A DNA stretch of 64,000 nt. Origin: Escherichia coli (GTDB lineage Bacteria > Pseudomonadota > Gammaproteobacteria > Enterobacterales > Enterobacteriaceae). A program made the translations under genes and the position numbers. Below, piece after piece: positions 1 through 42,862 of the stretch. Position 1 is the first letter of the stretch, and each line of letters opens with the position of its first letter. The stretch lies in the NCBI RefSeq assembly GCF_024223415.1, contig NZ_CP100500.1, one strand, 5' to 3'. The notes beneath the pieces were generated by a model. That model was not told the origin of the DNA. It ran no database searches and was given only the letters and a program-made list of their open reading frames with translations.

Positions 1-5563
<5,563 letters not shown>

Positions 5564-10903: not shown

Positions 10904-11575
10904 ATGAAGATTCTACTTATTGAAGATAATCAAAGGACCCAGGAATGGGTAACGCAGGGGCTTTCCGAAGCGGGTTATGTCATTGATGCCGTTACTGATG
11001 GCAGAGATGGGCTTTATCTTGCGCTGAAGGATGATTATGCATTGATCATTCTGGATATTATGCTTCCGGGTATGGATGGCTGGCAGATCTTACAAACGTT
11101 AAGAACGGCAAAGCAAACTCCTGTTATTTGCCTTACTGCAAGAGATTCTGTCGATGACAGAGTCAGAGGGCTGGACAGTGGGGCAAATGATTATCTGGTA
11201 AAACCTTTTTCATTTTCTGAGTTGCTGGCAAGGGTTCGGGCACAATTAAGGCAACATCACGCTTTGAATTCAACACTAGAAATCAGCGGCTTAAGAATGG
11301 ACTCTGTTAGTCAAAGTGTGAGCAGGGACAATATCAATATTACACTGACGCGCAAGGAGTTTCAGTTACTTTGGCTACTGGCCTCCAGAGCTGGCGAAAT
11401 TATACCCAGAACGGTTATTGCGAGTGAAATTTGGGGAATCAACTTTGATAGTGATACCAATACGGTGGATGTCGCCATTCGCAGGCTCCGCGCAAAAGTT
11501 GATGATCCTTTTCCTGAAAAGCTAATCGCCACAATCCGGGGGATGGGCTATTCATTCGTAGCGGTAAAAAAATAA
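10904..11575 (+). CDS. hprR: OmpR-family response regulator HprR (223 aa)
   Basis: MKILLIEDNQRTQEWVTQGL... receiver domain plus winged-helix; ORF-track start at 10793 is an upstream extension. Confidence 0.85.
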   Translation: MKILLIEDNQRTQEWVTQGLSEAGYVIDAVTDGRDGLYLALKDDYALIILDIMLPGMDGWQILQTLRTAKQTPVICLTARDSVDDRVRGLDSGANDYLVKPFSFSELLARVRAQLRQHHALNSTLEISGLRMDSVSQSVSRDNINITLTRKEFQLLWLLASRAGEIIPRTVIASEIWGINFDSDTNTVDVAIRRLRAKVDDPFPEKLIATIRGMGYSFVAVKK

Positions 11576-33165: not shown

Positions 33166-36490
<3,325 letters not shown>

Positions 36491-36704
36491 CGCGCACCTC
36501 GTGGCTGATTATGGACGGCGTTATTGGCAAAGTGGAACAAGACTCACTCCCGGGTCAGCAAACTCGAAAAATTGACGCTGCCATTATTTGTGCTTTCGTT
36601 TTTTTCTATCCGCCAATAAACCCGTTTTTTTGTTGCTATTTAGCGCCTTTGTCTTATTGACTTACTGGTAGGCTTTGCTACCAGAAATTATCCAGGAGAC
36701 GAAA
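36491..36704. promoter_or_regulatory. Divergent fliF / fliE class 2 (FlhDC-dependent) promoter region
   Basis: Intergenic region between divergently oriented fliF and fliE; assignment from conserved flagellar regulon architecture, sites not individually mapped. Confidence 0.4.
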
Positions 36705-37019
36705 ATGTCAGCGATACAGGGGATTGAAGGGGTTATCAGCCAGTTACAGGCTACGGCGATGAGTGCGCGTGCACAGGATTCACTGCCGCAACCGACCATT
36801 AGTTTTGCCGGGCAGCTGCACGCCGCGCTCGATCGCATTAGCGATACACAAACAGCTGCCCGCACGCAGGCAGAAAAATTCACCCTCGGTGAACCCGGCG
36901 TGGCGTTAAACGATGTGATGACCGATATGCAAAAAGCCTCAGTTTCTATGCAAATGGGGATTCAGGTGCGTAATAAGCTGGTGGCCGCGTATCAGGAAGT
37001 GATGTCCATGCAGGTGTAG
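36705..37019 (+). CDS. fliE: Flagellar hook-basal body protein FliE (104 aa)
   Basis: [104 protein letters not shown]. Confidence 0.95.
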
Positions 37020-37352
37020 GTTTTGTAACCTGTTGTTAATTACTTCCAATCTCACCGCTTGGGGCATGGATGGGGCAAACTCACTCAATTTCTGGTTTAA
37101 AATGGATACCTGATCCTGAAAGTTTTCTGCCATCCACGATCCGTAAACGCGATAACATGTTTTGTCTTCGCTTTGCTCATAGGAAGAGTGAACTCTTTTG
37201 TTAGCCTGGGGTTCCTTCTGATCATTATTGTTCCTGCCTTTATCTCTTGCCACGCCAGAGCCCCCTGGATACACATACACCAGGATGAAAACGGTGAGTT
37301 GTGTTCAAACTGTAGTACAATTCTCTCCAGTATGAACAGGAAAGAATATGCT

Positions 37353-37685
37353 ATGAACCCTTATATTTATCTTGGTGGCGCAATACTTGCAGAGGTCATT
37401 GGTACAACCTTAATGAAGTTTTCAGAGGGGTTTACACGGTTATGGCCCTCTGTTGGCACAATTATTTGCTATTGTGCATCATTTTGGTTATTAGCTCAGA
37501 CACTGGCTTATATACCTACAGGGATTGCTTATGCTATCTGGTCAGGAGTCGGTATCGTTCTGATTAGTTTGCTTTCCTGGGGATTTTTTGGCCAACGACT
37601 GGACTTGCCAGCCATCATAGGCATGATGTTGATTTGTGCCGGTGTGTTAGTCATTAACTTGTTGTCACGAAGCGCACCGCATTAA
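37353..37685 (+). CDS. emrE: SMR-family multidrug efflux transporter EmrE (110 aa)
   Basis: MNPYIYLGGAILAEVIGTTLMKFSEGFTRLWPSVGTIICYCASFWLLAQTLAYIPTGIAYAIWSGVGIVLISLLSWGFFGQRLDLPAIIGMMLICAGVLVINLLSRSAPH; conserved Glu14. Confidence 0.9.
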   Translation: MNPYIYLGGAILAEVIGTTLMKFSEGFTRLWPSVGTIICYCASFWLLAQTLAYIPTGIAYAIWSGVGIVLISLLSWGFFGQRLDLPAIIGMMLICAGVLVINLLSRSAPH

Positions 37686-37853
37686 AAAATAATCATCCTT
37701 GAGATAACAGGAATCTGATTTGTGCATATTATGGCTAATGTTCGGGGCAACTTTATAATTATGATTGCATTTGCGCGATCATTGCGCCTTTTTGCATAAT
37801 GAGATCAATGCACATCAAATAAAATAACGATAGGTCACAACAAAGAGGTTTTT

Positions 37854-38405
37854 ATGAAAAAACTTATCGTTTCAAGTGTATTGGCATTCATAACATTTTC
37901 TGCGCAGGCCGCAGCATTTCAGGTCACTAGTAATGAAATAAAAACAGGAGAGCAACTTACAACGTCTCATGTATTTTCTGGATTTGGGTGTGAGGGGGGT
38001 AATACATCGCCCTCATTAACCTGGTCTGGTGCTCCAGAAGGCACCAAAAGCTTTGCCGTAACTGTGTATGATCCAGATGCGCCTACAGGCAGCGGATGGT
38101 GGCACTGGACTGTTGCTAATATTCCAGCAACGGTAACATATTTGCCCGCTGATGCAGGAAGACGTGATGGTACAAAACTTCCGACTGGTGCTGTCCAAGG
38201 CCGAAATGATTTTGGTTATGCGGGATTTGGTGGAGCATGTCCTCCCAAAGGAGATAAACCCCATCATTACCAGTTTAAAATATGGGCTCTAAAAACTGAT
38301 AAGATTCCTGTGGATTCTAATTCCAGCGGAGCGTTAGTTGGTTATATGCTTAATGCCAATAAAATTGCAACCGCTGAGATAATACCCGTTTATGAGGTAA
38401 AGTAG
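37854..38405 (+). CDS. ybcL: Secreted PEBP-family (Raf kinase inhibitor-like) protein YbcL (183 aa)
   Basis: Signal peptide MKKLIVSSVLAFITFSAQAAAF, PEBP motifs (YDPDAP, HHYQFKIWAL). Confidence 0.85.
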   Translation: MKKLIVSSVLAFITFSAQAAAFQVTSNEIKTGEQLTTSHVFSGFGCEGGNTSPSLTWSGAPEGTKSFAVTVYDPDAPTGSGWWHWTVANIPATVTYLPADAGRRDGTKLPTGAVQGRNDFGYAGFGGACPPKGDKPHHYQFKIWALKTDKIPVDSNSSGALVGYMLNANKIATAEIIPVYEVK

Positions 38406-38414
38406 GATAAGAGT

Positions 38415-39212
38415 ATGCTGGCAAAAGATAGGACTAACCTAAAGATTGAAGAAATACGGATGCATAAACATCATGAGATTCACAGGGTTAAGCCTCTTAT
38501 GCCAGCTTTATGTCGTATCCGTCAGGGAAAAAAAATTATCAATTGGGAGACGCATAGTCTAACTGTTGATAATAATCAGATAATATTATTTCCCTGTGGA
38601 TATGAATTTTATATTGCGAATTACCCAGAAGCAGGTCTTTATCTTGCAGAAATGCTTTATTATCCCATTGATCTAATTGAAAAGTTCCAAAATCTTTATG
38701 CGATAACCGATCAAATTCGTAACACGACAGGTTTCTGCTTACCTCAGAATCCCGAGTTAATATATTGTTGGGAGCAACTAAAAACATCTATTTCCCGAGG
38801 CTTCTCAACGCAAATTCAGGAACACTTAGCAATGGGCGTTCTACTTTCATTAGGAGCACATCATGTTAATTGTTTACTTTTATCAGATAGTAAACAATCA
38901 TTAATAAGTCGTTGTTATAACCTAATGCTATCCGAACCTGGAACAAAATGGACAGCAAACAAGGTAGCGAGATATCTCTACATTTCTGTTTCCACATTGC
39001 ATCGCCGTCTGGCAAGCGAGGGAGTAAGTTTTCAAAGTATATTGGACGACGTGAGGTTAAATAATGCGTTGTCTGCTATACAAACGACAGTAAAACCCAT
39101 CAGCGAGATTGCCAGGGAAAATGGTTACAAGTGTCCTTCTCGTTTTACTGAAAGGTTCCATAATCGTTTTAAGATAACACCAAGAGAGCTAAGAAAAGCG
39201 TCCAGAGAGTAA
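38415..39212 (+). CDS. ybcM: AraC/XylS-family transcriptional regulator YbcM (265 aa)
   Basis: C-terminal AraC HTH ([47 protein letters not shown]...[20 protein letters not shown]). Confidence 0.85.
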
Positions 39213-39503
39213 AAGTATTTTATGAAGGAGCAACAGCATAGATTTTTATTTTGGAAAATAAATACGGCATACTCAACCTATTGGAGCCTGAACAATCCGG
39301 TGACTTCTGCGCTAATCGGGGACGTTTATAAGCACATATAATTGATACTATCTTCCTCCATCACAATTTCAGAAATGCACGTGTGATTTTTTTGCATCCG
39401 GCGTTTGGACTATGTGGAGTTCAAGAGTGGGAAAGTTACAAGAGGTTGAGGGGATAATTAAAGGGATGCTTATGACATTAGATATCCGGATAGGTACGGA
39501 TAT

Positions 39504-39543
39504 CGTTGTTATTAAATCTAGTTCGTTGTTATTAAATCTAGTT
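39504..39543. repeat. Perfect 2-copy tandem direct repeat of a 20-bp unit (CGTTGTTATTAAATCTAGTT)
   Basis: Two adjacent identical 20-mers inside AT-rich non-coding DNA. Confidence 0.9.
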
Positions 39544-40175
39544 TATACGTTAAGATGCAGCTACAGCAGAAATTGCCACTGTTAATTTTTTCATCGTGAG
39601 CCTTTTATTTGAACTATTATTTAAAAATGATGTCACTGCACTACAAATATTCATCCAATCAATGAGATTATTTCAAGATGTAAGTTTTAGTTTCTCATTT
39701 AAATTGTGAAGTAGATCCCTATCTTTATCTGAACTGTTTCTATTGCACACAATGCATGACTATTTTGTGAACGAATATAAATTTGGTAGTTAAATTATAT
39801 TAAAGGTTGTTATTTATGATTGACTCATAATTTATTTATTTAATTTAAATAGCCTAGAAATAACCATGGAAATTATTTGCATGATGTTTGTTTAGATTTA
39901 TTAATGTAATTGAGGTGGTTTTATTTAATACGCAATATAGCGCCGCTTGATATTAGTTCTATTTTTTTTGCGTAAGATAGATGAGACAAACTGAGACGCA
40001 TAATGGTTTGCAAGGCTCTAATACTTTGATGTTGAGGATGTGATGGGGCATGTACGGGGCATAGTACAATGATGTCCATGCTGGTGTAGATAATCTCCAG
40101 GCTTATCCGGTGCGCCGTAAAACCCCGTCCTTCAGGGCAGGGATATAAGGCGTGGTTTTCCACCTGACCAGGTGT

Positions 40176-40595
40176 TTGCTGTTGTTCAATGTATTGGCGG
40201 ATGACGGATATTGGCGCACCTCCGCAGCTACTGGCAAAATAGCCAGGACTCCACAAAACGCCTTTGTAGTAATACCTGACTGCAATATCTGGTCGATCTC
40301 GTCGCAGTCACCTACCCGATACGCCTTTGAGGCTGTTTACCAGACTGGATATCGCCAGTTTGGGAGGATAGTTAATTAACAAATGGACGTGATCTGGTTC
40401 GCCATCCATTTCAACCAGTTCAGCTTCAAAATCAGCACATACATTTGAAAAGTAAGTGCGTAGTTTTTCTGTCGCGTCATGGTCAAAAATCTGACGTCGG
40501 TATCTGGTGACAAAGACCAGGTGAACATGCATCAGGAAAACACAATGCCTTCCACGCCGGATATCGGTTTCTTTTTTCACAGACCAAAGTATCAT
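40176..40595 (-). pseudogene. tnpA: tnpA (HUH Y1 transposase of IS200/IS605 family) interrupted by an in-frame TGA
   Basis: N-part MILWSVKKETDIRRGRHCVFLMHVHLVFVTRYRR...EPDHVHLL (HUH motif) ends at TGA 40308..40310; same frame continues LRRDRPDIAVRYYYKGVLWSPGYFASSCGGAPISVIRQYIEQQ (catalytic Tyr region). Confidence 0.75.
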
Positions 40596-40602
40596 TTGGC
40601 CT

Positions 40603-41811
40603 GTGAAACGACTACAAGCATTTAAATTCCAGTTAAGACCCGGTGGTCAACAGGAGCGTGAAATGAGGCGCTTCGCAGGCGCATGTCGTTTCGTTTTCAA
40701 TCGTGCTCTGGCACGTCAGAATGAGAATCATGAGGTCGGTAATAAATACATCCCTTACGGGAAAATGGCTTCCTGGCTGGTTGAGTGGAAAAATGCCACT
40801 GAAACGCAATGGCTTAAAGATGCCCCGTCACAGCCATTGCAACAGTCACTGAAAGACCTTGAGCGGGCTTACAAAAACTTCTTCCAGAATCGGGCTGCTT
40901 TTCCCCGATTCAAAAAGCGGGGACAGAATGATGTATTCCGCTACCCGCAGGGCGTTAAGCTCGATCAGGAAAACAGCCGTATTTTTCTGCCGAAACTGGG
41001 CTGGATGCGCTACCGGAACAGCCGTCAGGTCACGGGTGTTGTGAAAAATGTCACTGTCAGCCAGTCCTGCGGTAAGTGGTACATCAGTATTCAGACAGAA
41101 AGTGAAGTATCAACTCCGGTTCACCCTTCAGCATCAATGGTCGGGCTGGATGCTGGCGTGGCTAAACTCGCCACGCTGTCAGATGGCACAGTCTTTGAGC
41201 CTGTAAACAGTTTTCAGAAAAACCAGAAGAAGCTGGCGAGACTTCAGCGACAGTTAAGCCGCAAGGTCAAATTCAGCAACAACTGGCAGAAGCAGAAACG
41301 CAAAATACAGCGACTGCATTCCTGTATCGCAAATATCCGCAGGGACTACCTTCACAAAGTCACAACGACCGTCAGCAAAAACCACGCAATGATAGTCATT
41401 GAGGATTTGAAGGTCAGCAACATGTCAAAGTCAGCAGCGGGTACGGTCAGCCAGCCGGGGCGCAATGTCCGGGCAAAATCAGGTTTAAACCGTTCGATAC
41501 TGGATCAGGGCTGGTATGAAATGCGCCGCCAGCTTGAGTACAAGCAGCTCTGGCGTGGCGGTCAGGTGCTTGCTGTTCCGCCAGCGTACACAAGCCAGCG
41601 TTGCGCGTGCTGTGGTCATACAGAGAAAGAAAACCGCCTGTCACAAAGTAAATTCAGATGCCAGGTATGTGGATATACAGCGAACGCCGATGTAAATGGC
41701 GCTCGTAACATTTTAGCGGCGGGGCACGCCGTTCTTGCCTGTGGAGAGATGGTGCAGTCAGGCCGCCCGTTGAAGCAGGAACCCACCGAAATGATTCAGG
41801 CGACAGCCTGA
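40603..41811 (+). CDS. tnpB: TnpB (IS605 OrfB family RNA-guided endonuclease), apparently intact, 402 aa
   Basis: RuvC-I ([12 protein letters not shown]), RuvC-II ([11 protein letters not shown]), zinc finger CACCGH...CQVCG, RuvC-III ([10 protein letters not shown]). Confidence 0.85.
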
Positions 41812-41850
41812 ACGTAGCAGGGATCCTCGTCCTTCAGGGCGTGGAGGATG

Positions 41851-42522
41851 TCAACAAACAGGTTGAATTAACTCCGCGCCCTGGTTTTTGACATTACCTA
41901 CCGCGCGCGATACCGGGTGCCAGGTGAACTGGTTTGCTGGCACACAGCCGTTGGTAGCAATTTCTGATGCTTCTTTACCGCCAATCTCTTGCCGCATCCA
42001 TTCCTGTGCAGCTTCTGGCGACAGAACCAGCGGGCGGCGGTCATGAATATCTACCAGACCCTGGTCTGCTGCTGCAGTGACAATTAAAAATCCTTCGGCT
42101 TCGTCACCGCGCTCAAACGGTGTGCTACCTATCGCGGCCATAAAAACAGGTTGTCCATCAGCGCGATAGATAAAATAAGGCTGTTTTTTGTCGCCTTCTT
42201 TTTTCCACTCAAACCAGCCATCGGCAAAACAGATTGCCCGACCATGTTGCCAGAGCGGTTTAAACATACGACTGGTGGCCGCAGTTTCTACGCGGGCGTT
42301 AATCAGCGGCGGTTTATCCCACCATCCGGGAGCATATCCCCAGAAAACCGGATCCAGATGAAGGTGTTCATCACGTTCACTGAGCAGAAGAACTTTGGTT
42401 CCCGGCGCGACGTTGTATCTGCCAATGGGTTCGGGATCGTAGGGAATATCGCGTTCAATATCTTCCGCGAGAAGCGCAAGGTAATCTTCACGCGTTTGGG
42501 ATTGGGCAAAGCGTCCACACAT
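41851..42522 (-). CDS. yedK: SRAP-family abasic-site processing protein YedK (223 aa)
   Basis: MCGRFAQSQTREDYLALLAEDIERDIPYDPEPIGRYNVAPGTKV..., N-terminal Cys2 nucleophile. Confidence 0.9.
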   Translation of the reverse strand: MCGRFAQSQTREDYLALLAEDIERDIPYDPEPIGRYNVAPGTKVLLLSERDEHLHLDPVFWGYAPGWWDKPPLINARVETAATSRMFKPLWQHGRAICFADGWFEWKKEGDKKQPYFIYRADGQPVFMAAIGSTPFERGDEAEGFLIVTAAADQGLVDIHDRRPLVLSPEAAQEWMRQEIGGKEASEIATNGCVPANQFTWHPVSRAVGNVKNQGAELIQPVC

Positions 42523-42628
42523 AGAAACCTCCTGAGATCATACTGAAAAGAATAGGAGAGGGGGCGGGTAAAATCTATGTGTCAGAGGCAACGATGTTCC
42601 CGCTGTGGGCCACAGCGGGAATGAGGGA

Positions 42629-42862
42629 TTACTTCTGAATTAAATAACGAATGGTCGGCCCGTCTTGCTGAATATCCAGCACCGTATAGCCGTGATTACG
42701 CGCATCCAGTGGAATATTATTGATCGACTGTGGACAGTCGCTCACCACTTCCAGGATTTCCCCTTTTTTTAACTGCGGCATCGCCTCAAGAGTTGCGACT
42801 GCCGGATAAGGGCAGGGTTCACCCACCATATCAAGGCGGTAATCAGGAACGATATTTTTCAT
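42629..42862 (-). CDS. yedF: TusA-like sulfurtransferase-fold protein YedF (77 aa)
   Basis: MKNIVPDYRLDMVGEPCPYPAVATLEAMPQLKKGEILEVVSDCPQSINNIPLDARNHGYTVLDIQQDGPTIRYLIQK (CPxP motif). Confidence 0.9.
   Translation of the reverse strand: MKNIVPDYRLDMVGEPCPYPAVATLEAMPQLKKGEILEVVSDCPQSINNIPLDARNHGYTVLDIQQDGPTIRYLIQK

Follow-up and report, generated by a model that had tools for sequence, protein, structure and literature searches.

A probable decayed lambdoid prophage at the 3' end of fliE in Escherichia coli, with an IS609 element in the adjoining yedK stop codon

Contents of the fliE-yedK interval

We analysed the interval between fliE and the SRAP peptidase gene yedK in a stretch of 64,000 nucleotides (nt) of Escherichia coli contig NZ_CP100500.1, referred to here as the window, and all coordinates are positions in that window. 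The layout was taken from the list of open reading frames (ORFs), a composition profile and the Prokaryotic Genome Annotation Pipeline (PGAP) annotation of NZ_CP042893.1 (record L001), which is 99.9% identical, and all three agree. An earlier, sequence-only reading of the window had placed emrE, ybcL and ybcM, a low-GC stretch of about 0.9 kb and an insertion sequence (IS) of the IS200/IS605 family between fliE and yedK, and all of these are present; it took them for unrelated cargo at a strain-variable integration hotspot. We consider it highly likely (probability roughly 0.9) that 37000-40089 is instead one decayed lambdoid prophage integrated at fliE, and that the IS, a copy of IS609, was inserted later beside it. 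The features of the interval are listed below; attL and attR denote the left and right attachment sites.

36705-37019, plus strand: fliE (PGAP annotation of the L001 locus, ORF list); its final 20 nt are the phage attachment core
37000-37019, plus strand: attL core, TGATGTCCATGCAGGTGTAG, the last 6 codons of fliE and the stop
37020-37155, minus strand: remnant of a tyrosine integrase C-terminus (about residues 387-431 of 434), orthologous to the intG remnant of K-12
37156-37262, minus strand: piece from the interior of this integrase (about residues 241-277)
37277-37685, plus strand: ren-emrE intergenic DNA and emrE, 92% nt identity to DLP12
37353-37685, plus strand: emrE, 110 amino acids (aa)
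37854-38405, plus strand: ybcL, 183 aa, Raf-kinase-inhibitor-like periplasmic protein
38415-39212, plus strand: ybcM, 265 aa, AraC-type regulator, intact
39213-39419, plus strand: prophage ybcM-ylcH/ybcN intergenic DNA, within a DLP12 match that ends at the ylcH start
39429-39523, plus strand: 3'-terminal 95 nt of a Q antiterminator gene (quuD-like), DLP12 match 82%, E 2e-21
39503-39542, plus strand: tandem duplication of 20 bp (two copies of TCGTTGTTATTAAATCTAGT), seen in the sequence itself
39554-39594, minus strand: nmpC/OmpD-like phage porin gene, reduced by deletion to its first 14 codons (MKKLTVAISAVAAS)
39595-39931, minus strand: upstream (promoter-side) region of the phage porin gene, 82% to DLP12 and also matched in living phages
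39932-40069, plus strand: attR phage arm, shared with L005
40070-40089, plus strand: attR core, TGATGTCCATGCTGGTGTAG, 19/20 identical to attL
40090-40106, plus strand: chromosomal spacer, reaching the yedK stop codon in IS-free genomes
40107-41853, plus strand: IS609 (IS200/IS605 family), 1747 bp, boundary ambiguous by 1 nt
40164-40595, minus strand: tnpA pseudogene (PGAP note 'internal stop')
40603-41811, plus strand: tnpB/insQ, 402 aa, intact ORF of the RNA-guided-nuclease family (Pfam, PGAP)
41851-42522, minus strand: yedK, 223 aa, its last Cys codon and stop coming from the IS609 right end

The low-GC stretch, 39213-40106, has a GC content of 0.33 against 0.52-0.55 in the flanks, and the lowest GC bin of the whole window (0.369) is that at 38-40 kb. 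An Rfam scan of 36400-42700 (E of at most 1) gave no match in this AT-rich DNA, only two sub-threshold ones at the 3' end of IS609. Since replication, lysis and structural modules are absent from 37000-40089 by the ORF list and by BLAST, this segment is a remnant, incapable of being induced as a phage. The ybcM gene, intact in the window, is frameshifted in NZ_CP042893.1 (4816-5612 of L001), the nearest genome to the window.

The attachment core and the collinear phage fragments

The last 20 nt of fliE recur with one mismatch at 40070-40089, and these are the sole two matches in the 64 kb at up to two mismatches, with 0 expected. In NZ_CP091682.1 (L005), which has the same emrE module and no IS at this locus, the second copy of the core also matches at 19 of 20 positions, with the mismatch at a different position. 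An identical 20-mer lies in Escherichia phage IdasGreatGrand (PP925829.1), 17 nt beyond the integrase stop codon and beside the integrase and excisionase genes (int-xis), and homology between this phage and the window begins exactly at 37000, left of which the phage and fliE differ.

The site is occupied by phages in other genomes. NZ_OZ040490.1 (L094) carries a complete P22-like prophage of 40.6 kb, running from int and xis to the tailspike gene and flanked by exact copies of the 20-mer, with fliE on one side and an older emrE-ybcLM remnant on the other. When the phage int-xis region was used as query, full-length integrase and excisionase genes abutting fliE were found in 7 complete genomes, at identities to the phage of 98.6, 98.5, 98.5, 78.8, 78.3, 78.3 and 76.7%, which makes at least four alleles. 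IdasGreatGrand and the P22-like prophage thus share with the window the integrase family and the core beside int-xis, and the prophage also its position; they differ in being complete, presumably functional and 40-48 kb long, in having different early and late modules and in lacking emrE-ybcLM. In Franconibacter pulveris fliE and the C-terminal remnant of a same-family integrase are convergent, in the order yedE, yedF, yedK, acyltransferase gene, int remnant, fliE, with no repeat of the fliE 3' end near yedK. Related integrases were also found in Enterobacter and Klebsiella phages in the phage-collection search. Because prophages and int-xis genes stand at the site and an integrase remnant stands there in Franconibacter too, we take the fliE 3' end, on these comparisons, to be a real phage attachment site (attB) that phages continue to use, and in more than one genus. 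The suspected integration hotspot is borne out by the core repeated at the far end of the island, by the cores in living phages and by the int and xis genes beside fliE in at least seven genomes.

The core itself is polymorphic. K-12-type alleles carry TGATGAGCATGCAGGTGTAG, with the Ser codon TCC replaced by AGC, and further changes, TAATGAGCATGCAGGTATAG, are seen in SMS-3-5 and O157 (variants read at the fliE 3' ends of L009, L007, L008, L010 and L100). In strain C3728 (L100) a phage arm is joined to the AGC variant of the core, so phages with this variant exist.

Downstream of fliE the window aligns with K-12 through 37155/6; over the 136 nt of 37020-37155 it is 96.3% identical to K-12 and 99.3% identical to L006. 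The sequence-only reading had given the K-12 order correctly (yedK, yedL, the yedN pseudogene, the intG pseudogene and fliE in the MG1655 annotation), and yedL and yedN/espR3 are indeed absent from the window by BLAST comparison, but it was wrong in holding that no K-12 occupant is recognisable, since this segment matches the intG remnant. The K-12 locus ('cryptic prophage PR-G') has the site and the integrase C-terminal remnant abutting fliE in common with the window, but beyond the remnant it passes into espR3/yedN (pseudogene) and yedL, it lacks both the emrE module and the attR core, and it differs in the att core by the TCC to AGC change, which is synonymous.

A phage-collection search with 36940-37290 led to IdasGreatGrand, in which a 434-aa integrase is followed by an excisionase. 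In a tblastn search with this integrase, 37038-37172 on the minus strand corresponds to residues 387-431 (78% identity, E 3e-20) and about 37151-37262 to an internal piece of approximately residues 241-277 (E 4e-12); by blastn, 37151-37260 is 75% identical to positions 3012-3127 of the phage record L092. An internal deletion of about 344 nt has brought the two pieces together, and in K-12 residues 383-431 are contiguous before the gene is broken off. The 3' end of the integrase gene faces the attL core, and at 37020-37262 (minus strand) only a fragment of that gene is left; a PHROGs scan of its ORFs gave weak evidence for an integrase (E 0.02), and comparison with the full-length phage integrase settled its identity. 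The breakpoint at 37155/6 was considered as one ancestral truncation of int and rejected because the window and K-12 break differently: in the window it is the junction of the internal deletion, and the K-12 type extends about 28 nt further into int.

Local BLAST against the DLP12 region of K-12 (L003) gave four collinear matches, as follows.

37277-37687: DLP12 ren-emrE spacer and emrE, 92%
37699-39419: DLP12 ybcL and ybcM, to the ylcH start, 89%
39429-39523: last 97 nt of DLP12 quuD (Q), L003 11242-11338 within 10957-11340, 82%
39554-39931: first 41 nt of nmpC and upstream DNA, L003 13786-14163, 82%

The same segments occur in phages. The region 37277-37685 is 92.3% identical to phage PhiR47_2, where it adjoins ren, and 37699-39931 is 87.5% identical to the lambdoid phages PhiR34_1, PhiR68_2 and PhiR70_1 (phage-collection search). 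These last (PV340559 and related records), which unlike the window segment are complete phages, have the order P-ren-emrE-ylcJ-ybcK-ybcL-ybcM-ybcN-ninE-ybcO-rusA-ylcG-Q-OmpD-S-R-Rz-bor. The order in the window, namely the int remnant, emrE, ybcL, ybcM, the Q 3' end, the porin 5' end with its upstream region, and attR, is that of DLP12 and of living phages. The right part, 39554-40107, is 98% identical to L005, in which the same flanks enclose an intact porin of 360 aa where the window keeps 14 codons, and comparison of the two gives the porin deletion junction as GTTAA/GATGCAGC (here and below a slash marks a junction). The tandem duplication at 39503-39542 is perfect, lies at the end of the Q remnant adjoining this junction, and is a single copy in L004 and L005. 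For the attR phage arm, 39932-40069, no match was found outside emrE-type alleles.

If the junction were a hotspot that had gathered an efflux cassette, anonymous AT-rich DNA and an IS one by one and from unrelated sources, then the contents would be expected to differ between strains, which they do, and IS609 is in fact a separate, later arrival. The same explanation must contend with a segment, 37000-40089, that is collinear with lambdoid phages from one end to the other and bracketed by att core repeats, and with 'anonymous' DNA that resolves into fragments of Q, the porin gene and attR; we consider it very improbable. The contents described earlier as unrelated cargo are collinear pieces of one lambdoid prophage, and of the description of 0.9 kb as AT-rich non-coding DNA the low GC content stands, while the anonymous character does not, the DNA being prophage fragments and the right attachment site.

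The emrE-ybcL-ybcM genes might also be a secondary copy derived from the resident DLP12 at argU by ectopic recombination or gene conversion, given that the same genes stand in the same order at 89-92% nt identity. The proteins are 98.2% (EmrE), 95.1% (YbcL) and 91.3% (YbcM) identical to the K-12 DLP12 copies; dN/dS, the ratio of nonsynonymous to synonymous divergence, is 0.02 for emrE, 0.09 for ybcL and 0.13 for ybcM, and dS is 0.24-0.38. This dS is a deep divergence from the K-12 DLP12 copy, so that the three genes are, to judge from their substitutions, old and constrained and not a recent copy of it. Further, the flanking integrase remnant is of another family than intD, the att repeats are specific to fliE and not to argU, and the Q and porin fragments extend the phage order past ybcM, and we hold a copy from DLP12 to be just as improbable as separate arrivals. 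DLP12 resembles the window remnant in its order (int ... ren-emrE-(ylcJ-ybcK)-ybcL-ybcM-ybcN...Q-porin(nmpC)-lysis), with 82-92% nt identity in the shared segments, and in being defective; it differs in its integrase family, in its attachment at tRNA-ArgU rather than at the fliE 3' end, and in size (21 kb against 3.1 kb), the window lacking ylcJ-ybcK, the nin region and the lysis, head and tail genes.

IS609 in the yedK stop codon

The element at 40107-41853 is 98.45% identical over its full length to the annotated IS609 of MG1655 (NC_000913.3). The corresponding empty site in L005 reads ...GGCTTAT/CAAACAGGTTGAATT (TTAT/CAAACAGG), and comparison with it places IS609 after TTAT, splitting the yedK TGA stop between its G and its A without duplicating the target; the boundary can be fixed only to within 1 nt, since a C adjoins either end. 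The gene ends in ...CCTGTTTG/TTGA in the window and in ...CCTGTTTGATAA in K-12, and since the IS609 end supplies T-TGA, YedK has 223 aa (...QPVC) instead of 222, one Cys being added.

Seven IS609 copies at seven loci have the ends CCGGTGCGCC...GGATGTCAA, with no target duplication and no terminal inverted repeats, and the boundaries enclose tnpA and tnpB only. The preceding tetranucleotide is TTAT in six of the seven and TTAC at a divergent plasmid copy. The motif CGTCCTTCAGGGC is common to both ends, and the single-strand DNA folds of the ends are not distinguishable from those of shuffled sequences (z -0.9 and -0.4). The K-12 copy (the yncK tnpA pseudogene and insQ, beside ydcO) has the same length within 1 nt, the same tnpA TGA and a 402-aa tnpB, and in K-12 as in the window the element is preceded by TTAT and overlaps the stop of a convergent gene, the site being ydcO in one and yedK in the other. 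Such overlaps recur: the right end (...GGATGTCAA; reverse complement TTGACATCC) supplies a replacement TGA to a convergent host gene at yedK (window 41851-41853), at K-12 ydcO (L091 6906-6909) and at yfeD in an O157-like strain (L097 2044-2047).

An origin of the whole island in IS609, as a composite or passenger-carrying element, could be argued from the position of the IS, which abuts the island, and from the L004-type deletions, which start inside it. This is refuted by the L005-type alleles, where the island is present without the IS, with an intact porin and with the clean empty site given above, and all seven compared copies bound tnpA and tnpB only; we give it next to no credence.

The element had been called decaying, which is right for tnpA and not for the remainder. 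The tnpA frame keeps the HUH motif HVHLL and the tyrosine motif RQYIEQ and has an in-frame TGA at 40308-40310 (VSGR-stop-LRRD), the same as in the K-12 copy; tnpB is intact, as are the two ends, and IS609 is usually found in this state in E. coli, where the element is present in 5014 of the 5426 complete genomes. The TGA is common to the window copy and the K-12 ydcO (L091) and yidH (L096) copies, with Leu at this position in two other copies. Its presence at three loci implies a defective copy mobilised in trans, gene conversion, or a stop that is tolerated or read through. With tnpA dead and tnpB and the ends intact, the window copy should be able to move only if TnpA is supplied in trans. 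TnpB has the Pfam matches OrfB_IS605 (1e-34), Cas12f1-like TNB (5e-24) and HTH_OrfB_IS605 (1e-13). The omega RNA of a TnpB is expected near the tnpB 3' end and the right end of the IS. At 41738-41867, which covers the tnpB 3' end and the right end of IS609, the two sub-threshold Rfam matches are RAGATH-18 (25.4 bits, E 0.2) and HgcC (19.3 bits, E 0.39).

Alleles across E. coli and the proposed history of the locus

Among 5426 complete E. coli genomes, the exact window form was found in 1073 (6-kb interval query, at least 80% covered) and an emrE-ybcLM allele at the fliE site in 2495, or 46% (13-kb query, at least 80% covered). Rough shares of the alleles were taken from an evenly spaced sample of the ranking (54 chromosomal rows) together with annotated examples, and seven forms are tabulated here.

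Window type (this window): about 20%
emrE type with intact porin and no IS (L005, NZ_CP091682.1): about 7%
emrE type with two further microhomology deletions, at GCAGCTAC and CTTC (L004): about 20%
K-12 type, with the yedN pseudogene and yedL (L009): about 20%
espR3 intact, including the tandem espR4/espR3 duplication in O157 (L008, L010): about 7%
yedL only (L007): about 4%
Near-empty form with 257 bp of K-12-type residue (L006): about 19%

With at least eight configurations among complete genomes, the interval is strain-variable, as had been proposed. The deletions of the L004 type start inside the IS and took attR, the left end of the IS, the greater part of tnpB and 235 nt at the end of yedK. 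This type had been a candidate for an IS-free 'empty site' and was rejected as such, being a further-deleted derivative that truncates yedK. In the O157 strain ERL04-3476 (L010, 18063-22101) a module of int remnant, espR and yedL is tandemly duplicated between fliE and yedK, giving espR4 and then espR3.

The 17-18 nt to the right of the attR core (ATAATCTCCAGGCTTAT with or without a further C) run straight into the yedK stop codon in K-12, L005 and L007. From attR and this shared 17-nt spacer we infer that the fliE and yedK stop codons would have lain about 16 nt apart before integration.

A temperate lambdoid phage with an integrase of the IdasGreatGrand family would then have integrated by tyrosine-integrase site-specific recombination, with the crossover at the 20-bp core that is the fliE 3' end; because the phage copy of the core restores that end, fliE would have been kept intact. 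Decay by at least five or six deletions would have left about 3.1 kb. In an order that we infer, these would have removed DNA within int, from int to ren, from ybcN to most of Q, the porin body, and the lysis, head and tail genes up to attR, and the absence of ylcJ-ybcK possibly marks one more. Of what remains, only the accessory genes emrE, ybcL and ybcM are still intact, and purifying selection acts on them. IS609 would have been inserted later, 3' of the TTAT in the yedK stop, presumably by single-strand 'peel and paste' transposition, the known mechanism of the IS200/IS605 family, its end restoring the stop and adding the Cys to YedK. The att core would have remained usable, with other phages of the same integrase family integrating there, and homologous recombination in the flanks would shuffle the resulting alleles among strains. 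L005, with its intact porin and no IS, is a surviving intermediate from which the junction of the porin deletion and the empty site of the IS can both be read.

Several observations weigh against the decayed-prophage reading or at least against its simplest form. K-12-type alleles are without the attR core, and their interior (espR3/yedN and yedL) has no match in the phage collection. A scan of species representatives with YedK gave no Escherichia outgroup and no unoccupied attB. The int segment is unusually polymorphic among alleles (88-99%), far more than the flanks, and the window's segment resembles that of the 'empty' L006 type most closely, more than those of the other emrE types. This polymorphism and this nearness point, in the alignments, to a left end exchanged by homologous recombination or an attL refreshed by later integrations, and a single simple lineage would be too simple an account. 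Against each of the other chromosomal IS609 copies the IS fragment of the L004 type reaches only about 95.5% identity, and it is compatible with either one or two insertions at the site.

The apparently miscellaneous island is now fully accounted for, with att sites, a proposed decay order and the IS insertion point given at the base level. In the literature searched we found no description of the locus itself or of a base-level attB and decay series. As an integration hotspot for phages the locus is real, its parts are known and all of well-known kinds, and this is routine comparative genomics with nothing surprising for the biology of the E. coli genome; what it adds is a 20-bp phage attB, defined in the last codons of fliE and apparently still in use, with a same-family integrase remnant that abuts fliE also in Franconibacter. 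In almost half of the sequenced E. coli genomes emrE-ybcL-ybcM is present in a second, divergent copy that lies outside DLP12, and this bears on how the emrE (efflux) and ybcL genotypes are read. For YbcL, variants that do and do not suppress neutrophil migration are reported in a review to differ by a single amino acid (PMC4810123).

We also considered, as a speculative reading that we think unlikely, that emrE-ybcL-ybcM have been domesticated and that the IS609 copy is perhaps an allele-protecting element. Domestication here would mean that the three genes were kept intact by purifying selection through the deletions of the remaining phage. As to protection, if the yedK flank supplied the omega-RNA guide (CAAACAGGTTGAATTA...), guide and TTAT motif would jointly match IS-free alleles of the same hotspot, and TnpB could then cut such alleles as they come in, biasing which allele persists; this presumes that IS609 TnpB behaves like characterised TnpB systems, as it may.

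Some minor observations concern the neighbouring genes. IS1-associated deletions lie beside the locus in C3728 (L100, fliE-fliQ) and CT01 (L101, fliF-fliQ), and both strains are presumably non-flagellate. In the scan of species representatives, synteny of yedK with yedEF/fliE outside Escherichia was limited to Franconibacter and one Enterobacter. In most other Enterobacteriaceae, YedK homologues (63-88% identity) are not beside yedEF or fliE (L012-L090), and in L027, L032, L065 and L089 a fragment of a same-family integrase lies 300-500 bp upstream of the yedK homologue; given these locations and integrase fragments, yedK-like genes may often be phage- or island-borne. Enterobacterial-type yedK was also seen on contigs labelled as a Lachnospiraceae metagenome-assembled genome, Chryseobacterium, Streptococcus infantis and Streptomyces morookaense (L011, L018, L063 and L079), the first of which additionally carries an E. 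coli fliE fragment and an emrE-type int remnant, and these four are probably contaminated assemblies.

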